In this document: positions 9,436 to 60,610 of the stretch, piece after piece
Layout of the letters: each line of letters begins with the position of its first letter
How positions within the stretch are numbered: position 1 is the first letter of the stretch
Assembly: GCA_951406725.2 (NCBI GenBank)
Contig: OX597820.1
Location: 120,156,001 to 120,220,000, forward strand
From: Octopus vulgaris
Taxonomy: Eukaryota
Direction: 5' to 3'
Length of the DNA stretch: 64,000 nt
Made by a program: the position numbers and the translations under genes
Notes under the pieces: model-generated
Told to the model about the DNA's origin: nothing
The model's database searches: none
Seen by the model: only the letters and a program-made list of their open reading frames with translations

Positions 9436-11212
9436 TAGTTTTATTTTTATAGCGTGCTTTCACTTCACTACTGAGCACAGCTCTGTGTGCCTTGGGTATG
9501 TGCTGTCATTTGTTGTGTTGCTCTGATGGTTATTGTATGGAAAGTGTTCTGCGTAGGATGTGTGCAGTGCCTAGTAGTGCAATTTTCTGTATGTTATATG
9601 TGTTTGTAAGTCCTGGTGTTTTTGTTATGTATTTGTCTGAATATTTTTTTATCATGCCTAATGCACCTACTATGATAGGAATTGTTTCTGTTTTCAGATT
9701 CCACATTCTAGTTACCTCTATTTCCAGGTCTTTGTATTTTGAGAGTTTCTCCATTTCTTTTAGATACACGTTGTCATCAGCCGGTATTGATACATCATTA
9801 GAAAGCATTTTTTTTCTACATGATCTCTGACAACTATATCTGGTCTGTTGGCCTTAATTTCTCTATCTGTGTGTATCGGCATATCCCAGAGTATGGTTGC
9901 TTTCTCGTTTTCTGTGACCTTTTCTGGTGTGTGCCTATACCATCTTTTTTCTGTTGTTATTCCATAATGTTGGCATAGCTTCCAATGTATGTAGGTTCCA
10001 ACTCTGTCATGTCTGTGAATATATTCCTTCTTAGCCAGGACTGGGCAGCTAGAGATAATATGATTTATTGTTTCTTGTCCATCTCCACATATTCTGCAGT
10101 TACTTGTAATATTTCTTTTCATTACATGTTTTTGGTAATTTCTGGTGGGGAGGCTTTGGTCTTGTGCTGCAATTAAAAATCCCTCTGTTTCTGCTTTGAG
10201 TCCTGAGCTTCTCAACCATTGCTGGGATTTTTCTTTGTCTATTTCTTTTGCGTTTAGTTTAGTCCAGTATTTACCATGAAGGGGCTTTTCTTGCCATCGT
10301 TTTATCATGGTTCGTTGCTGTTCTATTTTTAGTTTGGATTTCATTTGTTTTATAGCTTTTGTAGTTTCTTCATCTTCTTCTTCTTCTTCATGTTTATTAG
10401 GTGGTATGATTTCTTGTTCGTATTTGTCAGCTTCCTTAAATACTGAGAACAGTTTTTTGTTTTGCTCGTGTTTTGCCGCTATCTGGATCAGTTTTCCTTC
10501 CTTCTGAAGTAGATATTTTTGCAGTCCTATGGTGGTTATTTTATAGTAGTTTTCCAGCTGTATAAGGCCTCTACCACCTTCTATACGTTGTATATATAGT
10601 CTTTCTATGTCAGAGTTTGGGTGATGCATCCTAGATCCTGTCATTATTTTTCTTGTTTTCCTATCTATTTTGGTCAGTTCATTTCGTGTCCAGTTAAGGA
10701 TATTGTAGCTGTAACTTATAACTGGGACAGCTAAAGTGTTGATACCTATTATCTTGTTTTTAGCATTGAGCTCTGTGTTTAGTATTGATCTAACTCGTCT
10801 ATAATATTCTTTTTTTATTTTCTCTTTCATTTGTGTGTGTTGTGTCTTATCTAGTTCATGGATTCCTAAGTGTTTGTAAGTTTGGCTTTGGTCTAATTCT
10901 TTTATTTCATTGGTTTTATCTAGTGTGATGTTGTTACTCTTAACTAGTTTTCCTTTTTCAGGGTTACTTTGGCGCATTTTTCTAATCCAAATTTCATATC
11001 TATTTCTTTGGTAAATCCATGAACTGTCTTTAATAGTGTTTTCAGCTGTTTGTCATTTGCAGCGTATAGTTTTAGGTCATCCATATATAAAAGGTGGCTG
11101 ATCGTTTGGCCGTAACATTTATATCCGCATCCAGTTCTATTTAGCATATCAGATAGAGGTGACAGTGCCAAGCAGAAAAGGAGTGGAGAGAGCGTGTCTC
11201 CCTGGAATATTC
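9433..11212 (-). mobile_element. 5'-truncated R4/Dong-like non-LTR retrotransposon (RT + CCHC knuckle + restriction-like endonuclease), frameshifted
   Basis: IFQGDTLSPLLF and SHLLYMDDLKLY (RT); CRICG..ETINHIISSC (zinc knuckle); RHDRV, RPDIVV and KLSKYKDL..PIIVGALG (RLE), spread over ORFs 10944-11372, 9760-10977 and 9530-9808. (TAA)n on both sides. Confidence 0.9.
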
Positions 11213-41854: not shown

Positions 41855-42321
41855 CAACGGTTTACAGTGAAAAGCAACTTCACATGTGCTTCGGAGAACC
41901 TAATATACTCACTAACCTGCTCCGGGTGTCAAGAGCAGTACATAGGCCAAACAAAAAATGGTTTGCGTAAACGAATGGCCCTGCACAGATCCCAGATAAA
42001 AATTCCCAAAACAGAAAAATAGCTTTTAGCCAACACATAGATACTTGCGCCAACAAAAAAACACCAAACTTCAGAATTTTCCCCCTCTACCAATTTAGGG
42101 ACGATACAACCTCGAGACAAAGAATAAGTAAAGAAAATCTCTTTATTACAAAATACAAGCCACTTCTTAACGGGTCTACGACAAACAATTAATATACCTC
42201 AACTTTAGAATAAAAGAAAAATATATATATACACACACAAATACTACACTCCATAGAATCCATTACTAATCAGCCCCTTCATAGCTATATTTACACCCAT
42301 TCATATTCTCCTTCTCTGTTT

Positions 42322-48780: not shown

Positions 48781-49544
48781 ATTCTTCTCTAATCTAAGCA
48801 CGAGACCAGAATTTTTGGTGGAGGGAACCAGCGGATTAGATCGACCCAGTACGCAACTGGTAATTAATTTATCGGCTGCGAAAGGATGAAGGGCAAAGTC
48901 AACCTCGGCGGATTTTTGAGTTCAGAACACAAAGAGAGACGAAATACCTATATCTTTACTACCCACGATAGGCTAAACACAGAGAGGGAAAACAAGGACA
49001 GACAAACGGATTAAGTCGATTATATCGACCTCAGTGCGCAACTGGTACTTATTTAATCGACCCCGAAAGGATAAAAGGCAAAGTCGACCTCGGTGGAATT
49101 TGAGCTCAGAACGTAGCGGCAGACGAAATACCTATATCTTTACTACCCACAAGGGGCTAAAAACGGGACAAACAAAGGCAGACAAACGGATTAAGTCGAT
49201 TACATCGCCCCAGTGCGTAACTGGTACTTAATTTATTGATCCCGAAAGGATGAAAGGCAAAGTCCACCTCGGCGGAATTTGAACTCAGAACGTAGCGGCA
49301 GACGAAATACCTATTTCTTTATTACCCACACGGAGCTAAACATAGAGGGGACAAACAAGTACAGACATAGGTATTAAGTCGATTACATCGACCCCAGTGC
49401 GTAACTGGTACTTAATTTATCGACCCCGAAAGGGTGAAAGGCAAAGTCGACGTCGGCGGAATTTGAACTCACAACGTAACGGCAGACGATATACCGCTAA
49501 GCATTTACCCCGGCGTGCTAACGTTTCTGCCAGCTCGTCGCCTT
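48781..49544 (-). mobile_element. Head-to-tail tetramer of SINE family 3
   Basis: Four units of about 175-185 bp joined at ATAGGT/ATTTCGTC. One 13-bp TSD GAAATGGTTAAAT at 48768-48780 and 49545-49557. Confidence 0.88.
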
Positions 49545-50640: not shown

Positions 50641-51253
50641 AAAGGGATATCACAGCCACCAAAGAAACCGAATGTTACATAATGAACTCCATTAGCTGAC
50701 AACTGTTTCGGCTATGTTAATAGTATACTCTTCGTTGAGTACCAGGATAACAACCTATGTATTTCTTTACTACCCACAAGGGGCTAAACATAAAGGAGAC
50801 AAACAAGGACAGACAAACGGATTAAGCCGATTACATCGACCCCAGTGCGAAACTGGTACTTTATTTATCGGCCCCGGAAGGATGAAAGGCAAAGTCGACC
50901 TCGGCGGAATTTGAACTCAGAACGTAACGACAGACGAAATACCGCAAAGCATTTCGCCCGGCATGCTAACGTTTCTGACAGCTCGCCGCCTTTTTAAAGG
51001 ATAACAACCTATAGCTTAATCAGAGCCTTTGATATGAAGTCCACTTTACTTGAGAAAGATGCATTTTCAGAACATACACTTGTATGTTCTGAAAACGTAA
51101 CTTTCCTAAACCAAGTTCATGTCATATTCAAGGCTCTGATGAAGCTAGAGGATGTTACCCTGGCACTCAAATAACAATCCACCACATCTTATAGCAGAAA
51201 CAGACGTAAGGTAATGGATTTCATTACATAACATTTTTTCCGGTGTTATCTCT
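50641..51253. repeat. Degenerate fold-back element with a hammerhead-like motif in each arm
   Basis: Centre TTTTCAGAACATACA-CT-TGTATGTTCTGAAAA; arms TAGCTTAATCAGAGCCTT/AAGGCTCTGATGAAGCTA and AATGTTACATAATGAA/TTCATTACATAACATT. Confidence 0.7.
50759..50997 (-). mobile_element. SINE family 3 (tail b) inserted into the fold-back
   Basis: 15-bp TSD AGGATAACAACCTAT at 50744-50758 and 50998-51012. Confidence 0.92.
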
Positions 51254-51386: not shown

Positions 51387-51449
<63 letters not shown>

Positions 51450-51781
51450 ACAATCAAGGAACGGCCATAATAAGCCATTCACCCACTAGAAATAACAGCC
51501 AAAGCTTCAACCGCAAATATGTTAAACTTAAAAATGGTCTATGACTATTTAATTTTTTCCTACTAGGCCGCTGGTGGCAAAAGAATTCTACAAATTTTTT
51601 TTTGCCACCCTATATTGATTAATTATGAATTTTCTGGTTAATTCCGTAATGGAATCGACGGCTTATATTTATTTGCTGCCGATAAATTTGGCGCGAGTGC
51701 GACGATTTGATAATTTTAGGTCAGATATAAACTTGGCAAGGTCGGAAATGCCTCGTGAAAATATCTGTTCCGACTTGGGCT

Positions 51782-51888
51782 ATTTCTTACTGATGAATCT
51801 GAGGGCCTGTGGAAGATTGGCTTGATTTAATTTAATCAGGTTAGTTTACCATTAATCAGCAGATGAAACGGTATATCGTATAAGAAAT
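51782..51888 (+). ncRNA. Type I hammerhead ribozyme, unit 1
   Basis: Stem I ATTTCTTA/TAAGAAAT; core CTGATGA 51790-51796; stem II ATCTG..CAGAT; GAAA 51865-51868; stem III ACGG-TATA-TCGT; predicted GUA cleavage after 51880. Confidence 0.88.
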
Positions 51889-52273
51889 TACAGGGTAAAT
51901 GTTTTTTAAATTTTCTCCTGGTTTACAGAATTAACTTTTATTTGCGGTTGAAGCTTTGGCTGTTATTTCTAGTGGGTGAATGGCTTATTATGGCCGTTCC
52001 TTGATTGTTGATGTTAAACTTAAAAATGGTCTATGACTATTTAATTTTTTCCTACTAGGCCGCTGGTGGCAAAAGAATTCTACAAAATTTTTTTTGCCAC
52101 CCTATATTGATTAATTATGAATTTTCTGGTTAATTCCGTAATGGAATCGACGGCTTATATTTATTTGCTGCCGATAAATTTGGCGCGAGTGCGACGATTT
52201 GAAAATTTTAGGTCAGATATAAACTTGGCAAGGTCGGAAATGCCTCGTGAAAATATCTGTTCCGACTTGGGCT

Positions 52274-52380
52274 ATTTCTTACTGATGAATCTGAGGGCCT
52301 GTGGAAGATTGGCTTGATTTAATTTAATCAGGTTAGTTTACCATTAATCAGCAGATGAAACGGTATATCGTATAAGAAAT
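52274..52380 (+). ncRNA. Type I hammerhead ribozyme, unit 2
   Basis: Same sequence as unit 1; predicted cleavage after 52372. Confidence 0.88.
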
Positions 52381-52766
52381 TACAGGGTAAATGTTTTTTA
52401 AATTTTCTCCTGGTTTACAGAATTAACTTTTATTTGCGGTTGAAGCTTTGGCTGTTATTTCTAGTGGATGAATGGCTTATTATGGCCGTTCCTTGATTGT
52501 TGATGTTAAACTTAAAAATGGTCTATGACTATTTAATTTTTTCCTACTAGGCCGCTGGTGGCAAAAGAATTCTACAAAATTTTTTTTTGCCACCCTATAT
52601 TGATTAATTATGAATTTTCTGGTTAATTCCGTAATGGAATCGACGGCTTATATTTATTTGCTGCCGATAAATTTGGCGCGAGTGCGACGATTTGAAAATT
52701 TTAGGTCAGATATAAACTTGGCAAGGTCGGAAATGCCTCGTGAAAATATCTGTTCCGACTTGGGCT

Positions 52767-52873
52767 ATTTCTTACTGATGAATCTGAGGGCCTGTGGAAG
52801 ATTGGCTTGATTTAATTTAATCAGGTTAGTTTACCATTAATCAGCAGATGAAACGGTATATCGTATAAGAAAT
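52767..52873 (+). ncRNA. Type I hammerhead ribozyme, unit 3
   Basis: Same sequence as unit 1; predicted cleavage after 52865. Confidence 0.88.
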
Positions 52874-53258
52874 TACAGGGTAAATGTTTTTTAAGTTTTC
52901 TCCTGGTTTACAGAATTAACTTTTATTTGCGGTTGAAGCTTTGGCTGTTATTTCTAGTGGGTGAATGGCTTATTATGGCCGTTCCTTGATTGTTGATGTT
53001 AAACTTAAAAATGGTCTATGACTATTTAATTTTTTCCTACTAGGCCGCTGGTGGCAAAAGAATTCTACAAAATTTTTTTTGCCACCCTATATTGATTAAT
53101 TATGAATTTTCTGGTTAATTCCGTAATGGAATCGACGGCTTATATTTATTTGCTGCCGATAAATTTGGCGCGAGTGCGACGATTTGATAATTTTAGGTCA
53201 GATATAAACTTGGCAAGGTCGGAAATGCCTCGTGAAAATATCTGTTCCGACTTGGGCT

Positions 53259-53365
53259 ATTTCTTACTGATGAATCTGAGGGCCTGTGGAAGATTGGCTT
53301 GATTTAATTTAATCAGGTTAGTTTACCATTAATCAGCAGATGAAACGGTATATCGTATAAGAAAT
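53259..53365 (+). ncRNA. Type I hammerhead ribozyme, unit 4
   Basis: Same sequence as unit 1; predicted cleavage after 53357. Confidence 0.88.
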
Positions 53366-53751
53366 TACAGGGTAAATGTTTTTTAAATTTTCTCCTGGTT
53401 TACAGAATTAACTTTTATTTGCGGTTGAAGCTTTGGCTGTTATTTCTAGTGGGTGAATGGCTTATTATGGCCGTTCCTTGATTGTTGATGTTAAACTTAA
53501 AAATGGTCTATGACTATTTAATTTTTTTCCTACTAGGCCGCTGGTGGCAAAAGAATTCTACAAAATTTTTTTTGCCACCCTATATTGATTAATTATGAAT
53601 TTTCTGGTTAATTCCGTAATGGAATCGACGGCTTATATTTATTTGCTGCCGATAAATTTGGCGCGAGTGCGACGATTTGAAAATTTTAGGTCAGATATAA
53701 ACTTGGCAAGGTCGGAAATGCCTCGTGAAAATATCTGTTCCGACTTGGGCT

Positions 53752-53858
53752 ATTTCTTACTGATGAATCTGAGGGCCTGTGGAAGATTGGCTTGATTTAA
53801 TTTAATCAGGTTAGTTTACCATTAATCAGCAGATGAAACGGTATATCGTATAAGAAAT
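53752..53858 (+). ncRNA. Type I hammerhead ribozyme, unit 5
   Basis: Same sequence as unit 1; predicted cleavage after 53850. Confidence 0.88.
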
Positions 53859-54243
53859 TACAGGGTAAATGTTTTTTAAATTTTCTCCTGGTTTACAGAA
53901 TTAACTTTTATTTGCGGTTGAAGCTTTGGCTGTTATTTCTAGTGGGTGAATGGCTTATTATGGCCGTTCCTTGATTGTTGATGTTAAACTTAAAAATGGT
54001 CTATGACTATTTAATTTTTTCCTACTAGGCCGCTGGTGGCAAAAGAATTCTACAAAATTTTTTTTGCCACCCTATATTGATTAATTATGAATTTTCTGGT
54101 TAATTCCGTAATGGAATCGACGGCTTATATTTATTTGCTGCCGATAAATTTGGCGCGAGTGCGACGATTTGAAAATTTTAGGTCAGATATAAACTTGGCA
54201 AGGTCGGAAATGCCTCGTGAAAATATCTGTTCCGACTTGGGCT

Positions 54244-54350
54244 ATTTCTTACTGATGAATCTGAGGGCCTGTGGAAGATTGGCTTGATTTAATTTAATCA
54301 GGTTAGTTTACCATTAATCAGCAGATGAAACGGTATATCGTATAAGAAAT
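54244..54350 (+). ncRNA. Type I hammerhead ribozyme, unit 6
   Basis: Same sequence as unit 1; predicted cleavage after 54342. Confidence 0.88.
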
Positions 54351-54575
54351 TACAGGGTAAATGTTTTTTTAAATTTTCTCCTGGTTTACAGAATTAACTT
54401 TTATTTGCGGTTGAAGCTTTGGCTGTTATTTCTAGTGGGTGAATGGCTTATTATGGCCGTTCCTTGATTGTTGATGTTAAACTTAAAAATGGTCTATGAC
54501 TATTTAATTTTTTTCCTTCTAGGCCGCTGGTGGCAAAAGAATTCTACAAAATTTTTTTTTGCCACCCTATATTGA

Positions 54576-54611
<36 letters not shown>

Positions 54612-54674
54612 GAACACACACACACACACACATATATATATATGTATAGATACATCAATACATATATATAAATA

Positions 54675-55620
54675 TATTAGGTTTTTCACATGAAATGCCA
54701 TATTTGAAAGGTAACAATAAAATGCGCCAGAAGTGTTAAAGAACTGCTTCATTTAATCAAAGTATGATCCATGATCATTTATGACGTTTTCCCATCGTTT
54801 CTGTTTGTCATATATTCCATCATAAACTGTGATAAACTGTCCGAATCTTTCAATTAACTCTTCTCTATTTAAGACTGTTTTATTGTTTATGATAAGTTCA
54901 ATATGCTGCTTCAATAAGTGATGATCAGTAGGAGAGATATCGGTGGTATAGGGAGGACGTTGCAAAATCTCATAATCCAGGCTTTGCAGCTTTTGGACCG
55001 TAGCTTGTGGAGTGTGAGGACGTGCATTGTCGTGGAGCAAAATTGGGCCATCTCTATTTACTAGTCTGGGTTGCTTCTTTTTAAAATTTTCATGGATACA
55101 ATCAATTTCCTGGCAATACGATGTTGCTGTTACCATTTTTCCTTGTTGCAAAAATGAATAATGAATAATTCCCTTTGCAGACCACCATACAACGACCACT
55201 AACGTTTGAGGGTGCAGTGGTGGGTTTGGGTAATGTATAGCTGACTCTCCTGCATCTAATCACTTTCCTGTTGTCCTGCTGCTGTCAAAGAGTATCCATT
55301 TTTCTCAGATATAGAGAGAGAGGATAGTAACACTACTATTTCATCAAATATTTTTTTATTTCTTGTAATCCGTGAATGTATCGATGTGATACAAACGGTT
55401 GTACTGGTAATAACGGTTTTAGTGAGAGATGAAGTGGAGTAGGGTACTGGAGCCAATATTGCTAATATTTGTCAGATGATCATTGTTTTGGTGCAAATTG
55501 AATTATATTTCTTTGGCAATTTTGTCAGAATTTGGATGGAACTGTCGATGATACTGAACTGGTAATCATTGTTTTCTTTTTCGTATCATTCATAGTTTTA
55601 ATAATGAAGATAATATTTGT
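54675..55620 (-). mobile_element. Decayed mariner transposon (DD34D-type catalytic region)
   Basis: ORF 54753-55199: VWWSAKGIIHYSFL..ILLHDNARPH..YEILQRPPYTTDISPTDHHL..RWENVINDHGSYFD. TIR-like TATTAGGTT at 54675; upstream limit approximate. Confidence 0.85.
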
Positions 55621-58714: not shown

Positions 58715-60610
58715 CCTTCTTTCATTACGCGAAAGAAACAGCCTCAGTGCACTACAAGATAGGACCCCCTCCTCCAAAAGGATGGCTCCCTCACAGACAG
58801 TCCAACTAAGATCAGTGAGATACTGAATGACCAGTTCAAAGGTATCTTTACAACCCCGTTGGAAGACAGACAAGTGAATGAACTAGTGGACTTCTTTGCC
58901 GCCTCACCTATAACCAGCGAGGCCGTTACAATAGACCACATTGACATTAGGGAAGATGTACTACTAGCCATAGATGAAGTGGACACAAACTCAACTGCTG
59001 GTCCTGATGGTTTCCCAGCAATCCTACTCAAATCGTGTAAACATGCCCTGGCAAAACCTCTCCAGATTCTCTTCCAGAGCTTTCTTACAAATGGCAAACT
59101 GCCAAGCAAGCTGAAGGAGGGAATAATATGCCCAATACATAAAGGGGGAAGTAGAGCAGATGCCAAAAACTATAGGCCTATCTCTCTGACTTCACACATC
59201 AGCAAAGTCATGGAACGGATAATCAGAGAGAAACTAATCGCATTCTTTGAAAAAAATAACTTGGTTTTCGACCAGGTAGGAGCTGCCTGACCCAGTTCTT
59301 ACAACATTATGACTAGGTGTTGAGGCAGTTACTCAACAAATCACATGTGGATGTAATATGCCTTGGTTTTGCAAAAGCTTTTGACAAGGTGGATCATGGT
59401 ATGATATGCCACAAACTGTGTGACCTCGGCATAGCTAGAAAACTTGGAGTGTGGTTACTTGACTTCCTGAAAGATAGGAGTCAGGCAGTAGTGGCTAAAA
59501 GAGCCACCTCTATGAACACACAAATAGTGAGTGGTGTTCCACAGGGCACTGTCTTGGGACCACTGCATTTTATGGTGGCCCTTTCAGATATGCCCTCAAA
59601 TGCCCGGCTAACCACTCTGGCATTCTATGCAGATGATACGAAAGTCTCACAGAAAATACAGAACCCCAGCCATGTTGCACACCTGCAGCAGGATTTGGAC
59701 TCAATTTACAGATGCGCTGAGGATAATAATATGCAGTTTAATGCTGAAAAATTCCAGGCCCTGCGCTACCAGCATCCAAAACTGAATATTAAACCTACAG
59801 AGTACACCGGTCCACAGGGAATTTCAATCCCAGAGCCTAATTCAGTTAGGGACCTGGGTATCGACATGATTTATGATACCTCTTTCCAAGTGCACCTTAC
59901 CAGGATGGCGACAAAGTGCAGACGACTGGCTGGATGGATCCTAAGAACATTCAGAACCAGAGATAAGGAAACCATGATGGTCCTCTGGCGGATATTCGTC
60001 CTCAGCCGCCTGGATTACTGCTCACAGTGTGAGATTAACCCACCAGTGTGAGATTAACAGCGGACCTTGAAGCAATCCAGAGAAGATTCACAAAGAAGAT
60101 CGTCTCTTTGCAACAGCTCAGCTACTGGGAAAGGTTGAAACAGCTAAGACTCTACTCCCTGGAGAGAAGACGGGAGAGGTATGCAGTAATATATATCTGG
60201 AAGATCCTGGAAGGAATTGTTCCAAACTTTGGCATTTAAAGCTACACCAATGCCAGAACGGGACGACACTGCATGGTGTCAAAGATCCCAGCAATGCCAT
60301 CACGCTTCAGCACCAGTTACTGTAACAGTCTGGGTTTCAAGGGCCCACAACTTTTTTATATTCCCCCAAAAATCTGAGGAACTTGTACACAGTAGATGTA
60401 GGGGTTTTTAAATCAAAGCTGGACCTCTTCCTGTCGAGAGTCCCAGATGAGCCTACCTCACGGCAAGAGATGCAAACGAGGGTAGCTATATCAAGGTCCA
60501 TTCTTCATCAAGTGTCACATATTAGACGAGGCTCCTAGTAATAACAGTGTCGCGCAAAACGGCGGTGCATCAGCATGGCCGCAGCTCTGAGCTGAAACTT
60601 AAATTAAAAT
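58713..60610 (+). mobile_element. 5'-truncated CR1/L2-group LINE, RT with stops and frameshifts, intact 3' end
   Basis: AGPDG, NYRPISLTSHISKVMER, FAKAFDKVDH, SGVPQGTVLGP, YADDTK, RDLGI, SRLDYCS and LYSLERRRER; microsatellites on both flanks. Confidence 0.92.

Follow-up and report, generated by a model that had tools for sequence, protein, structure and literature searches.

A young hammerhead retrozyme family of Octopus vulgaris, probably copied from RNA circles into (TA)n tracts

A stretch of 64,000 nucleotides (nt) of Octopus vulgaris DNA (assembly GCA_951406725.2, contig OX597820.1, positions 120,156,001 to 120,220,000, forward strand; hereafter the window) holds an array of tandem units, each with a complete type I hammerhead ribozyme. 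The array is almost certainly a young, non-coding retrozyme of the non-LTR (long terminal repeat) kind, to which the type I hammerhead tandem repeats newt satellite 2 and schistosome SMalpha also belong. In the model favoured here, at a probability of roughly three in four, the retrozyme is a passenger copied from a monomeric RNA circle and inserted by the enzyme of a Penelope-like element (PLE). In the fullest form of this model, for which the odds are about even, the insertions would record two reverse transcriptases (RTs) copying one ribozyme-made circle at once from two fixed sites, and the family would be an RNA-level lineage, with inherited changes beginning at adenosines of the RNA strand and a catalytic core frozen apart from N7, that borrows an intact Neptune-type, (TA)n-specific enzyme through RNA structure, not shared sequence.

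Position 1 of the unit is the base that follows the GUA cut, at window 51881, and unit positions are counted from there. Tandem Repeats Finder places the array at 51519-54583, with a period of 492, 6.2 copies and 99% matches; this main arm, on the plus strand, runs for 6.23 units from position 131 to a fixed end, B (~238). An earlier note on this DNA had described near-identical units of 492-493 bp over 51446..54583. The units are real, but 51446-51519 is an inverted arm of 74 nt that was overlooked: it lies on the minus strand, is the exact reverse complement of unit positions 59-132, carries the private variant 105T, and has its 3' end at a second fixed end, A (~132). (TA)n adjoins the insertion on the left (51419..51447) and on the right (54581..54677), with no strand assigned. 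Within the unit, end A corresponds to 52005..52012 and end B (positions 233-238) to 52113..52118, both putative priming sites on the plus strand. Just upstream of end B stands a strong hairpin (52065..52101, plus strand) which, by eye, is kept with changed pairs in a sister family. The three hairpins named in the earlier note are present in the unit, whose GC content is 0.35. Its longest ATG-started frame spans 66 amino acids (aa), and no endless open reading frame (ORF) was found in it.

Six cores made of stem I and CUGAUGA begin at 51782, 52274, 52767, 53259, 53752 and 54244. The first hammerhead, counted with its distal stem I, occupies 51774..51894 and would be cut after 51880; it consists of stem I (51782-51789/51881-51888), the core (51790-51796, with N7 at 51794), a long stem II (51797-51864) and GAAA with stem III (51865-51879). 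The other five, likewise on the plus strand, lie at 52274..52380 (cut after 52372), 52767..52873 (52865), 53259..53365 (53357), 53752..53858 (53850) and 54244..54350 (54342). All six are intact with the elements that had been listed for them, and the cut positions agree with those given before, as do the five releasable non-coding monomers of 492/493/492/493/492 nt (51881..52372, 52373-52865, 52866-53357, 53358-53850 and 53851-54342, plus strand). Each ribozyme has the type I features C3 U4 G5 A6 N7 G8 A9, G12 A13 A14, A15.1-U16.1 and H17, and three stems with stem I open. Stem I has 8 bp and a distal extension, stem II is 68 nt long and closed by A-U, and the GUA triplet stands at the cut. 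Stem III, with three Watson-Crick pairs, one G-U and a UAUA loop, is short and self-complementary, and might pair between two ribozyme copies as well. The internal loops of stems I and II are complementary over 4-5 nt (GGCU/GGCC here, GGCG/CGCC in the sister family; by eye, in two families), pointing to a possible pseudoknot or loop 1-loop 2 contact.

The predicted active fold lies 1.8 kcal/mol above the minimum free energy, with a local z of -2.2, and stem II has a pairing probability of at least 0.92. The Rfam search that had been proposed did not find the ribozyme: the hammerhead models gave no match at gathering score in the window, and at E<=10 the interval 51400-52500 yielded three weak matches, all unrelated and none a hammerhead. 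The probable cause is the 68-nt span of stem II. No hammerhead core occurs on the minus strand of the unit, where other ribozyme classes were checked through Rfam.

The ribozyme is widely dispersed. The octopus's own genome (2.8 Gb) was searched with the unit, and 40 of 1142 candidates were scored; these hold 220 matches, with 89-100% identity among the matches listed. Exact 23-nt ribozyme cores number 815 genome-wide, against none for a reversed control pattern. A set of 71 loci was mapped, comprising 39 from the unit search, 32 from the first 100 listed pattern matches and the window, minus L139; left out of the counts were L139 (fragmented), a separate B piece of L031 and an old piece of L126. 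The suggestion that the array belongs to a dispersed mobile family is thus borne out, 70 other loci on many chromosomes having the array's anatomy. In most insertions two arms meet head-to-head and are bordered by (TA)n on the outside; every outer end typed maps to unit site A (~132) or B (~233-238). Ends were A+B in 54 loci, A+A in one and B+B in none, with 16 loci typed at one end, so that A+B accounts for 54 of the 55 loci typed at both. The dispersed, circularly permuted arrays that had been predicted are therefore present as to dispersal but not as to random permutation: the outer ends are fixed, and the inner junction alone varies between insertions, often with 1-5 nt of overlap (from BLAST ends). 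Among 123 arms examined for cut sites, at least one was crossed in 111, two in 63 and three or more in 20, and the longest arm has 9.4 units. The ends sit in (TA)n, where no target-site duplication (TSD) is discernible. The arm maps contain no LTR architecture; primer-binding sites and polypurine tracts were not searched for.

Several loci depart from this plan. In L134, L138, L140, L055 and L128 the arms jump internally between unit positions, as template switches, and in L134 a sub-unit of 241 nt (392 to 140), ribozyme included, is repeated, perhaps from a shortened circle. At L031:901-2280 a B arm (130-238) is inverted and joined to the 5' end of a truncated RT piece of a long interspersed nuclear element (LINE) with an (AAAATC)n tail. 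Different TA-ending repeats with inverted arms lie at L072:400-690 and 2720-2960 and at the 3' end of L118, and one of them has a decayed hammerhead-like motif; they may be further PLE-related families.

The copies within an insertion appear to share one origin. After 56 homopolymer-edge and end positions had been masked, mismatch was 0.26% within an arm and 0.28% between the arms of one insertion, against 1.48% between insertions. Variants fixed in all copies of an insertion numbered 184, of which 127 extend over both arms and 12 occur at a single locus; a further 114 variants are single and 9 partial. In the first 40 loci 67 locus-site cases were uniform, against 6.5 on average and 15 at most in 1000 permutations. 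The window's own 105T is present in 7/7 copies, the 74-nt arm included. With polarity read against the consensus, inherited changes on the ribozyme strand start from A in 19 cases and from T in 4 (p=2e-4), and rare alleles in 14 v 4 (p=0.007); changes confined to one unit show no such bias (18 v 15) and are mostly G>A and C>T. (L035 was excluded from the tests of ribozyme conservation, arm length, pair sharing and strand bias, and L031 from the first two.) One haplotype per insertion and strand-biased inherited changes together argue that each insertion was copied from one monomer-length, single-stranded molecule, as rolling-circle reverse transcription of a circle predicts. A monomeric RNA circle is thus the likely template, and the recent, rolling-circle origin proposed in the earlier note gains support from the analysis of the copies. 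A circular trimer was considered for the window (323A>T occurs in units 1 and 4) and rejected, the remaining variants being without periodicity.

The ribozyme itself appears to be conserved. Apart from N7, the free base of the hammerhead core, fixed variants fall on 0/48 core and stem positions as compared with 34/387 elsewhere in the unit (p=0.016), a contrast that is inflated in the 3' half, 32 loci having been selected by exact match to that half. Such conservation implies that cutting matters. N7 (unit position 406; window 51794 and equivalents) reads A in 37, T in 18, G in 8 and C in 4 of 67 loci. It was altered repeatedly on different backgrounds (A>T, A>G, A>C) and changes far oftener than any other site; the excess could reflect neutrality plus an exposed or modified adenosine. 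An older sister retrozyme family of about 460 nt, with copies mostly 80-90% alike and 349 exact cores, has 3021 first-look candidates (loci L160-L186, for instance L161:1341-1803, minus strand). Its sequence runs colinear with that of the unit, its arms also stand head-to-head, and its ends fall at the sites that correspond to A and B. Its hammerhead stems are wholly different; the site is GUC, and most copies have U3. Two sister loci with cores 2-3 kb apart hold no PLE ORF inside.

Arm lengths bear on how two arms arise. A fold-back model, in which the length of the second arm is bounded, was tested on 43 two-armed loci. In 8, where 11 would be expected if the arms were independent, fold-back could not have given the lengths seen, and the lengths of the two arms show no correlation (rho 0.03); each arm can therefore be an independent copy of the template. 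Exact mirrors with B as the longer arm occur in 5/43 loci (0.7 expected, p=5e-4) and the reverse arrangement in none, which makes fold-back after B priming a minor route. As a sole explanation, fold-back was accordingly ruled out for 8-9 of the 43 loci and retained for 5. The idea that the first arm stops at the second primer site was rejected, since inner ends show no significant enrichment there.

Evidence of transcription comes from sequencing runs, of which 20 of the 24 listed hold part of the unit stretch, across six organisms and 9 studies. None of the listed runs is recorded as RNA; four, from four studies, are presumed to be. Contigs of all four cover every bin of the unit and read through from its end into its start, and in run X3 a single 523-nt contig (492+31) has alleles that match a major genomic subfamily. 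Compared by eye with the window, six of 16 listed loose ends, from X1, X2 and X7, show no differences but clusters of A>G or T>C, 34 changes in all and on both strands; in three of these ends the cleavage-site A is affected. Such an A-to-I signature argues for RNA and for double-stranded transcripts, as two-armed loci would give, and transcription of the retrozyme unit is indicated. A possible internal Pol II promoter block is predicted at 52179..52223 (plus strand), with motifs that we take to be E2F-like, TTTGAA and TATAAA; its word GATTTGAAAA is also kept in the sister family. Record 21 of run X7 and loose ends of X2 match the unit in parts only, and these partial contigs suggest that other, related hammerhead families are present among the transcripts.

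The Penelope-like machinery that the earlier note had invoked has a plausible source in the same genome. In a search for GIY-YIG domains (PF01541), 150 of 6136 candidates were scored, and many of these matches lie in an open 781-codon frame. The element concerned has a 781-aa frame with RT, GIY-YIG and a CX4CXXC linker, a 479-aa upstream frame, pseudo-long terminal repeats (pLTRs) of 504 bp and (TA)n ends. A young copy with both ORFs lies in (TA)n at L103:744-5953 (G000:C6), and others are at L100-L115, L119 and L152-L159. Copies differ by a median of 0.7% (n=15), and by its sequence the element is intact and coeval with the retrozyme. Among 25 copies, 20 carry the short end and 2 the long one, which lies 40 nt further on; the other 3 have two arms, in each case one with the short and one with the long end. 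Repeated blocks in its 3' region are presumably CRE/CCAAT-like. By the criterion of PMC8557442, applied without a tree, the element would be of Neptune/Nematis type. A relaxed scan placed a hammerhead motif of the U3-A8 variant, which is known from PLEs (PMC4209133), in the pLTR at 19/34 loci, with a palindromic stem III; a stricter scan (stem I of at least 5 bp, G8 required) gave no such motif. The youngest copies have a GUU triplet and a poor stem I, the older ones GUA. That a PLE-type enzyme mobilises the retrozyme is likely; whether its partner is this 781-aa family in particular is close to an even bet.

Derivation of the retrozyme from a PLE pLTR finds no support here. No pLTR homology of that kind appeared in 50 PLE loci, where the sole unit match is one 57-nt retrozyme arm inserted in (TA)n, and the mapped loci contain no retrozyme arm joined to a PLE ORF. 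The unit was also considered as the pLTR of an ORF-bearing element and rejected: tblastn placed PLE pieces in 0/32 and 4/39 retrozyme loci, apart from the arms (judged by coordinates).

In the proposed mechanism, plus-strand transcripts of an array would cleave themselves at GUA into 492-nt monomers, which would be ligated into RNA circles, a step demonstrated for coral, mussel and axolotl retrozymes (PMC7229834). A PLE-like RT/GIY-YIG enzyme would cut a (TA)n tract, and the two target ends would prime on one circle at the two fixed AU-rich sites, ~132 and ~238. How far each RT travels round the circle would vary, 9.4 turns being the most seen, and the two cDNAs would be joined head-to-head at a variable junction; in about 1 in 9 two-armed cases the second arm would be a fold-back copy of the B-primed first.

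Several observations weigh against this reading. The predicted pairing probability of stem III is just 0.04-0.08, the minus strand folds nearly as well against shuffles (z -3.9 v -4.5), and 8/9 predicted Xenopus retrozymes failed to cleave (preprint 10.64898/2026.07.22.740005). Contigs cannot tell a circle from a multimer, and the runs are presumed RNA. The arms of L035 carry two haplotypes; L031 ends A+A, and a LINE 3' piece is joined to a B arm there. Just after the cut site inner ends show a mild enrichment (13/110 in positions 1-30, 6.7 expected; p=0.017, one of four position windows), hinting at some linear templates. With respect to the helper, the unit shared no sequence with 50 PLE loci at word size 7, and with 150 of 6136 GIY-YIG candidates scored the actual partner may have escaped notice. 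Most PLE copies (22/25) have one arm and most retrozyme copies two, and the PLE ends are 40 nt apart as against 106. Since the A+B rule also holds in the linear PLE, it marks the enzyme, not circularity. Other PLE families exist in the genome, and Naiads likewise target (TA)n and occur in cephalopods (PMC8557442).

Some of these points would suit uncleaved linear multimers, transcribed from homogeneous donor arrays and twin-primed by the same enzyme, with circles as by-products. The weak stem III, the linear RNA used by the PLE itself, the slightly raised number of inner ends at the cut site and the A to G editing of the cleavage site in three X1 loose ends (by eye), which would block cutting, all fit such templates. 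They are nevertheless unlikely. None of 2415 locus pairs (70 loci) shares two non-fixed variants and 8 share one; 12 private whole-insertion variants and 25 haplotypes in 42 well-covered loci require repeated monomer bottlenecks; and the conservation of the ribozyme implies that cutting matters.

A 492-bp DNA circle, excised or cDNA-derived, copied by rolling-circle DNA synthesis and integrated by the PLE endonuclease, likewise predicts one haplotype per insertion, and it could draw on the exact fold-back mirrors at 5/43 loci and on PLE biology, where the mechanism is unresolved and self-priming or antisense templates have been proposed (PMC3846280). The strand bias of inherited changes, from A, selection on the ribozyme, the 8/43 loci with arms beyond the fold-back bound (close to the 11 expected if independent) and the lack of correlation between arm lengths make it improbable. 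Still less credit goes to a LINE (CR1-like or RTE) as the RT source with L1-style twin priming. LINE pieces are common, and the B arm of L031 is fused to one that is 5'-truncated and tailed, but that fusion occurs in 1/71 loci and no common 3' tail is seen; what typifies PLEs (PMC8557442, PMC3846280) is a (TA)n target, arms set head-to-head and a 'tail' at one end, and these occur in this genome's own PLE. Finally, the missing Rfam match would suit ordinary satellite DNA, a local duplication or an artefact of assembly in which the ribozyme motif arose by chance, but dispersal and conservation refute this in practice: 70 further loci on many chromosomes are built alike, single-unit variants are distinct, a sister family has re-paired stems, and runs of several organisms contain the unit.

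The passenger model thus retained places the family beside known systems. Like metazoan non-LTR retrozymes of coral, mussel and axolotl (PMC7229834), it has tandem non-coding units of a few hundred nt with low GC, one type I hammerhead per unit, a self-paired monomer and PLEs in the genome; it differs in the 68-nt stem II, with its possible loop-loop pseudoknot, and in two-armed (TA)n insertions with two fixed ends and no discernible TSD. Its monomer had seemed unusually large, yet 492 nt lies inside the 51-972 bp range of retrozyme consensus lengths (preprint 10.64898/2026.07.22.740005); published definitions of non-LTR retrozymes also give 150-450 bp. The pLTR-derived retrozymes of Xenopus described in that preprint are likewise proposed as non-autonomous PLE passengers. 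There, 24/57 families match annotated transposable elements, mostly PLE ends, and local pLTR amplification into tandems is suggested, whereas here no pLTR match was found and arrays look written in one event. The preprint samples no cephalopod and states the mechanism as unresolved.

Endonuclease-bearing PLEs (Neptune/Nematis type, Naiads) share the head-to-head arms, the tail at one end, the microsatellite target and a terminal hammerhead (PMC8557442, PMC3846280, PMC4209133), their inverted arms, one-end tails and microsatellite bias being described in the first two; the retrozyme differs from them in its lack of an ORF, a tail of 106 nt as against 30-40 nt, multi-turn arms and a full hammerhead predicted to be monomer-competent. 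A circular RNA intermediate and rolling-circle copying, if they occur here, would also recall hammerhead viroids and plant LTR retrozymes, from which the family is set apart by a type I ribozyme on one strand only, a branched fold and no LTR architecture. Circles as RT templates and PLEs as helpers are still hypotheses in the literature (PMC7229834, PMC7761336, preprint 10.64898/2026.07.22.740005). The non-LTR retrozyme kind is known, and the insertion anatomy was not found described: the literature searched yielded no cephalopod retrozyme, two-armed retrozyme insertion or insertion-level rolling-circle test, though Repbase and supplements, outside the search, may list the family.

The family makes the mobilisation question testable: it offers hundreds of recent insertions, which can be read as if they were a circle-sequencing experiment, together with a 492-nt template whose two ends are mapped and an enzyme that is intact and coeval. 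An in vitro PLE integration system has been called the next task (PMC8557442). If the model is right, it would provide a defined template-enzyme pair for retrozyme mobilisation and for the unexplained PLE 'tail' and inverted ends, and would be relevant to the entry of circular RNAs into genomes and to RT/endonuclease pairs with (TA)n tracts as their target.

Elsewhere in the window, tandem 184-nt units (3.6 copies, 85%) lie at 48834-49495 and 50820-50995; we take them to be a common SINE-like (short interspersed nuclear element) repeat with an RTE-type 3' end. Non-LTR fragments include a zf-RVT frame between (TAT)n tracts at 9763-11052 (minus strand) and an RVT_1 frame at 59317-60048 (plus strand), and a decayed PLE endonuclease piece stands at 41855-42171.

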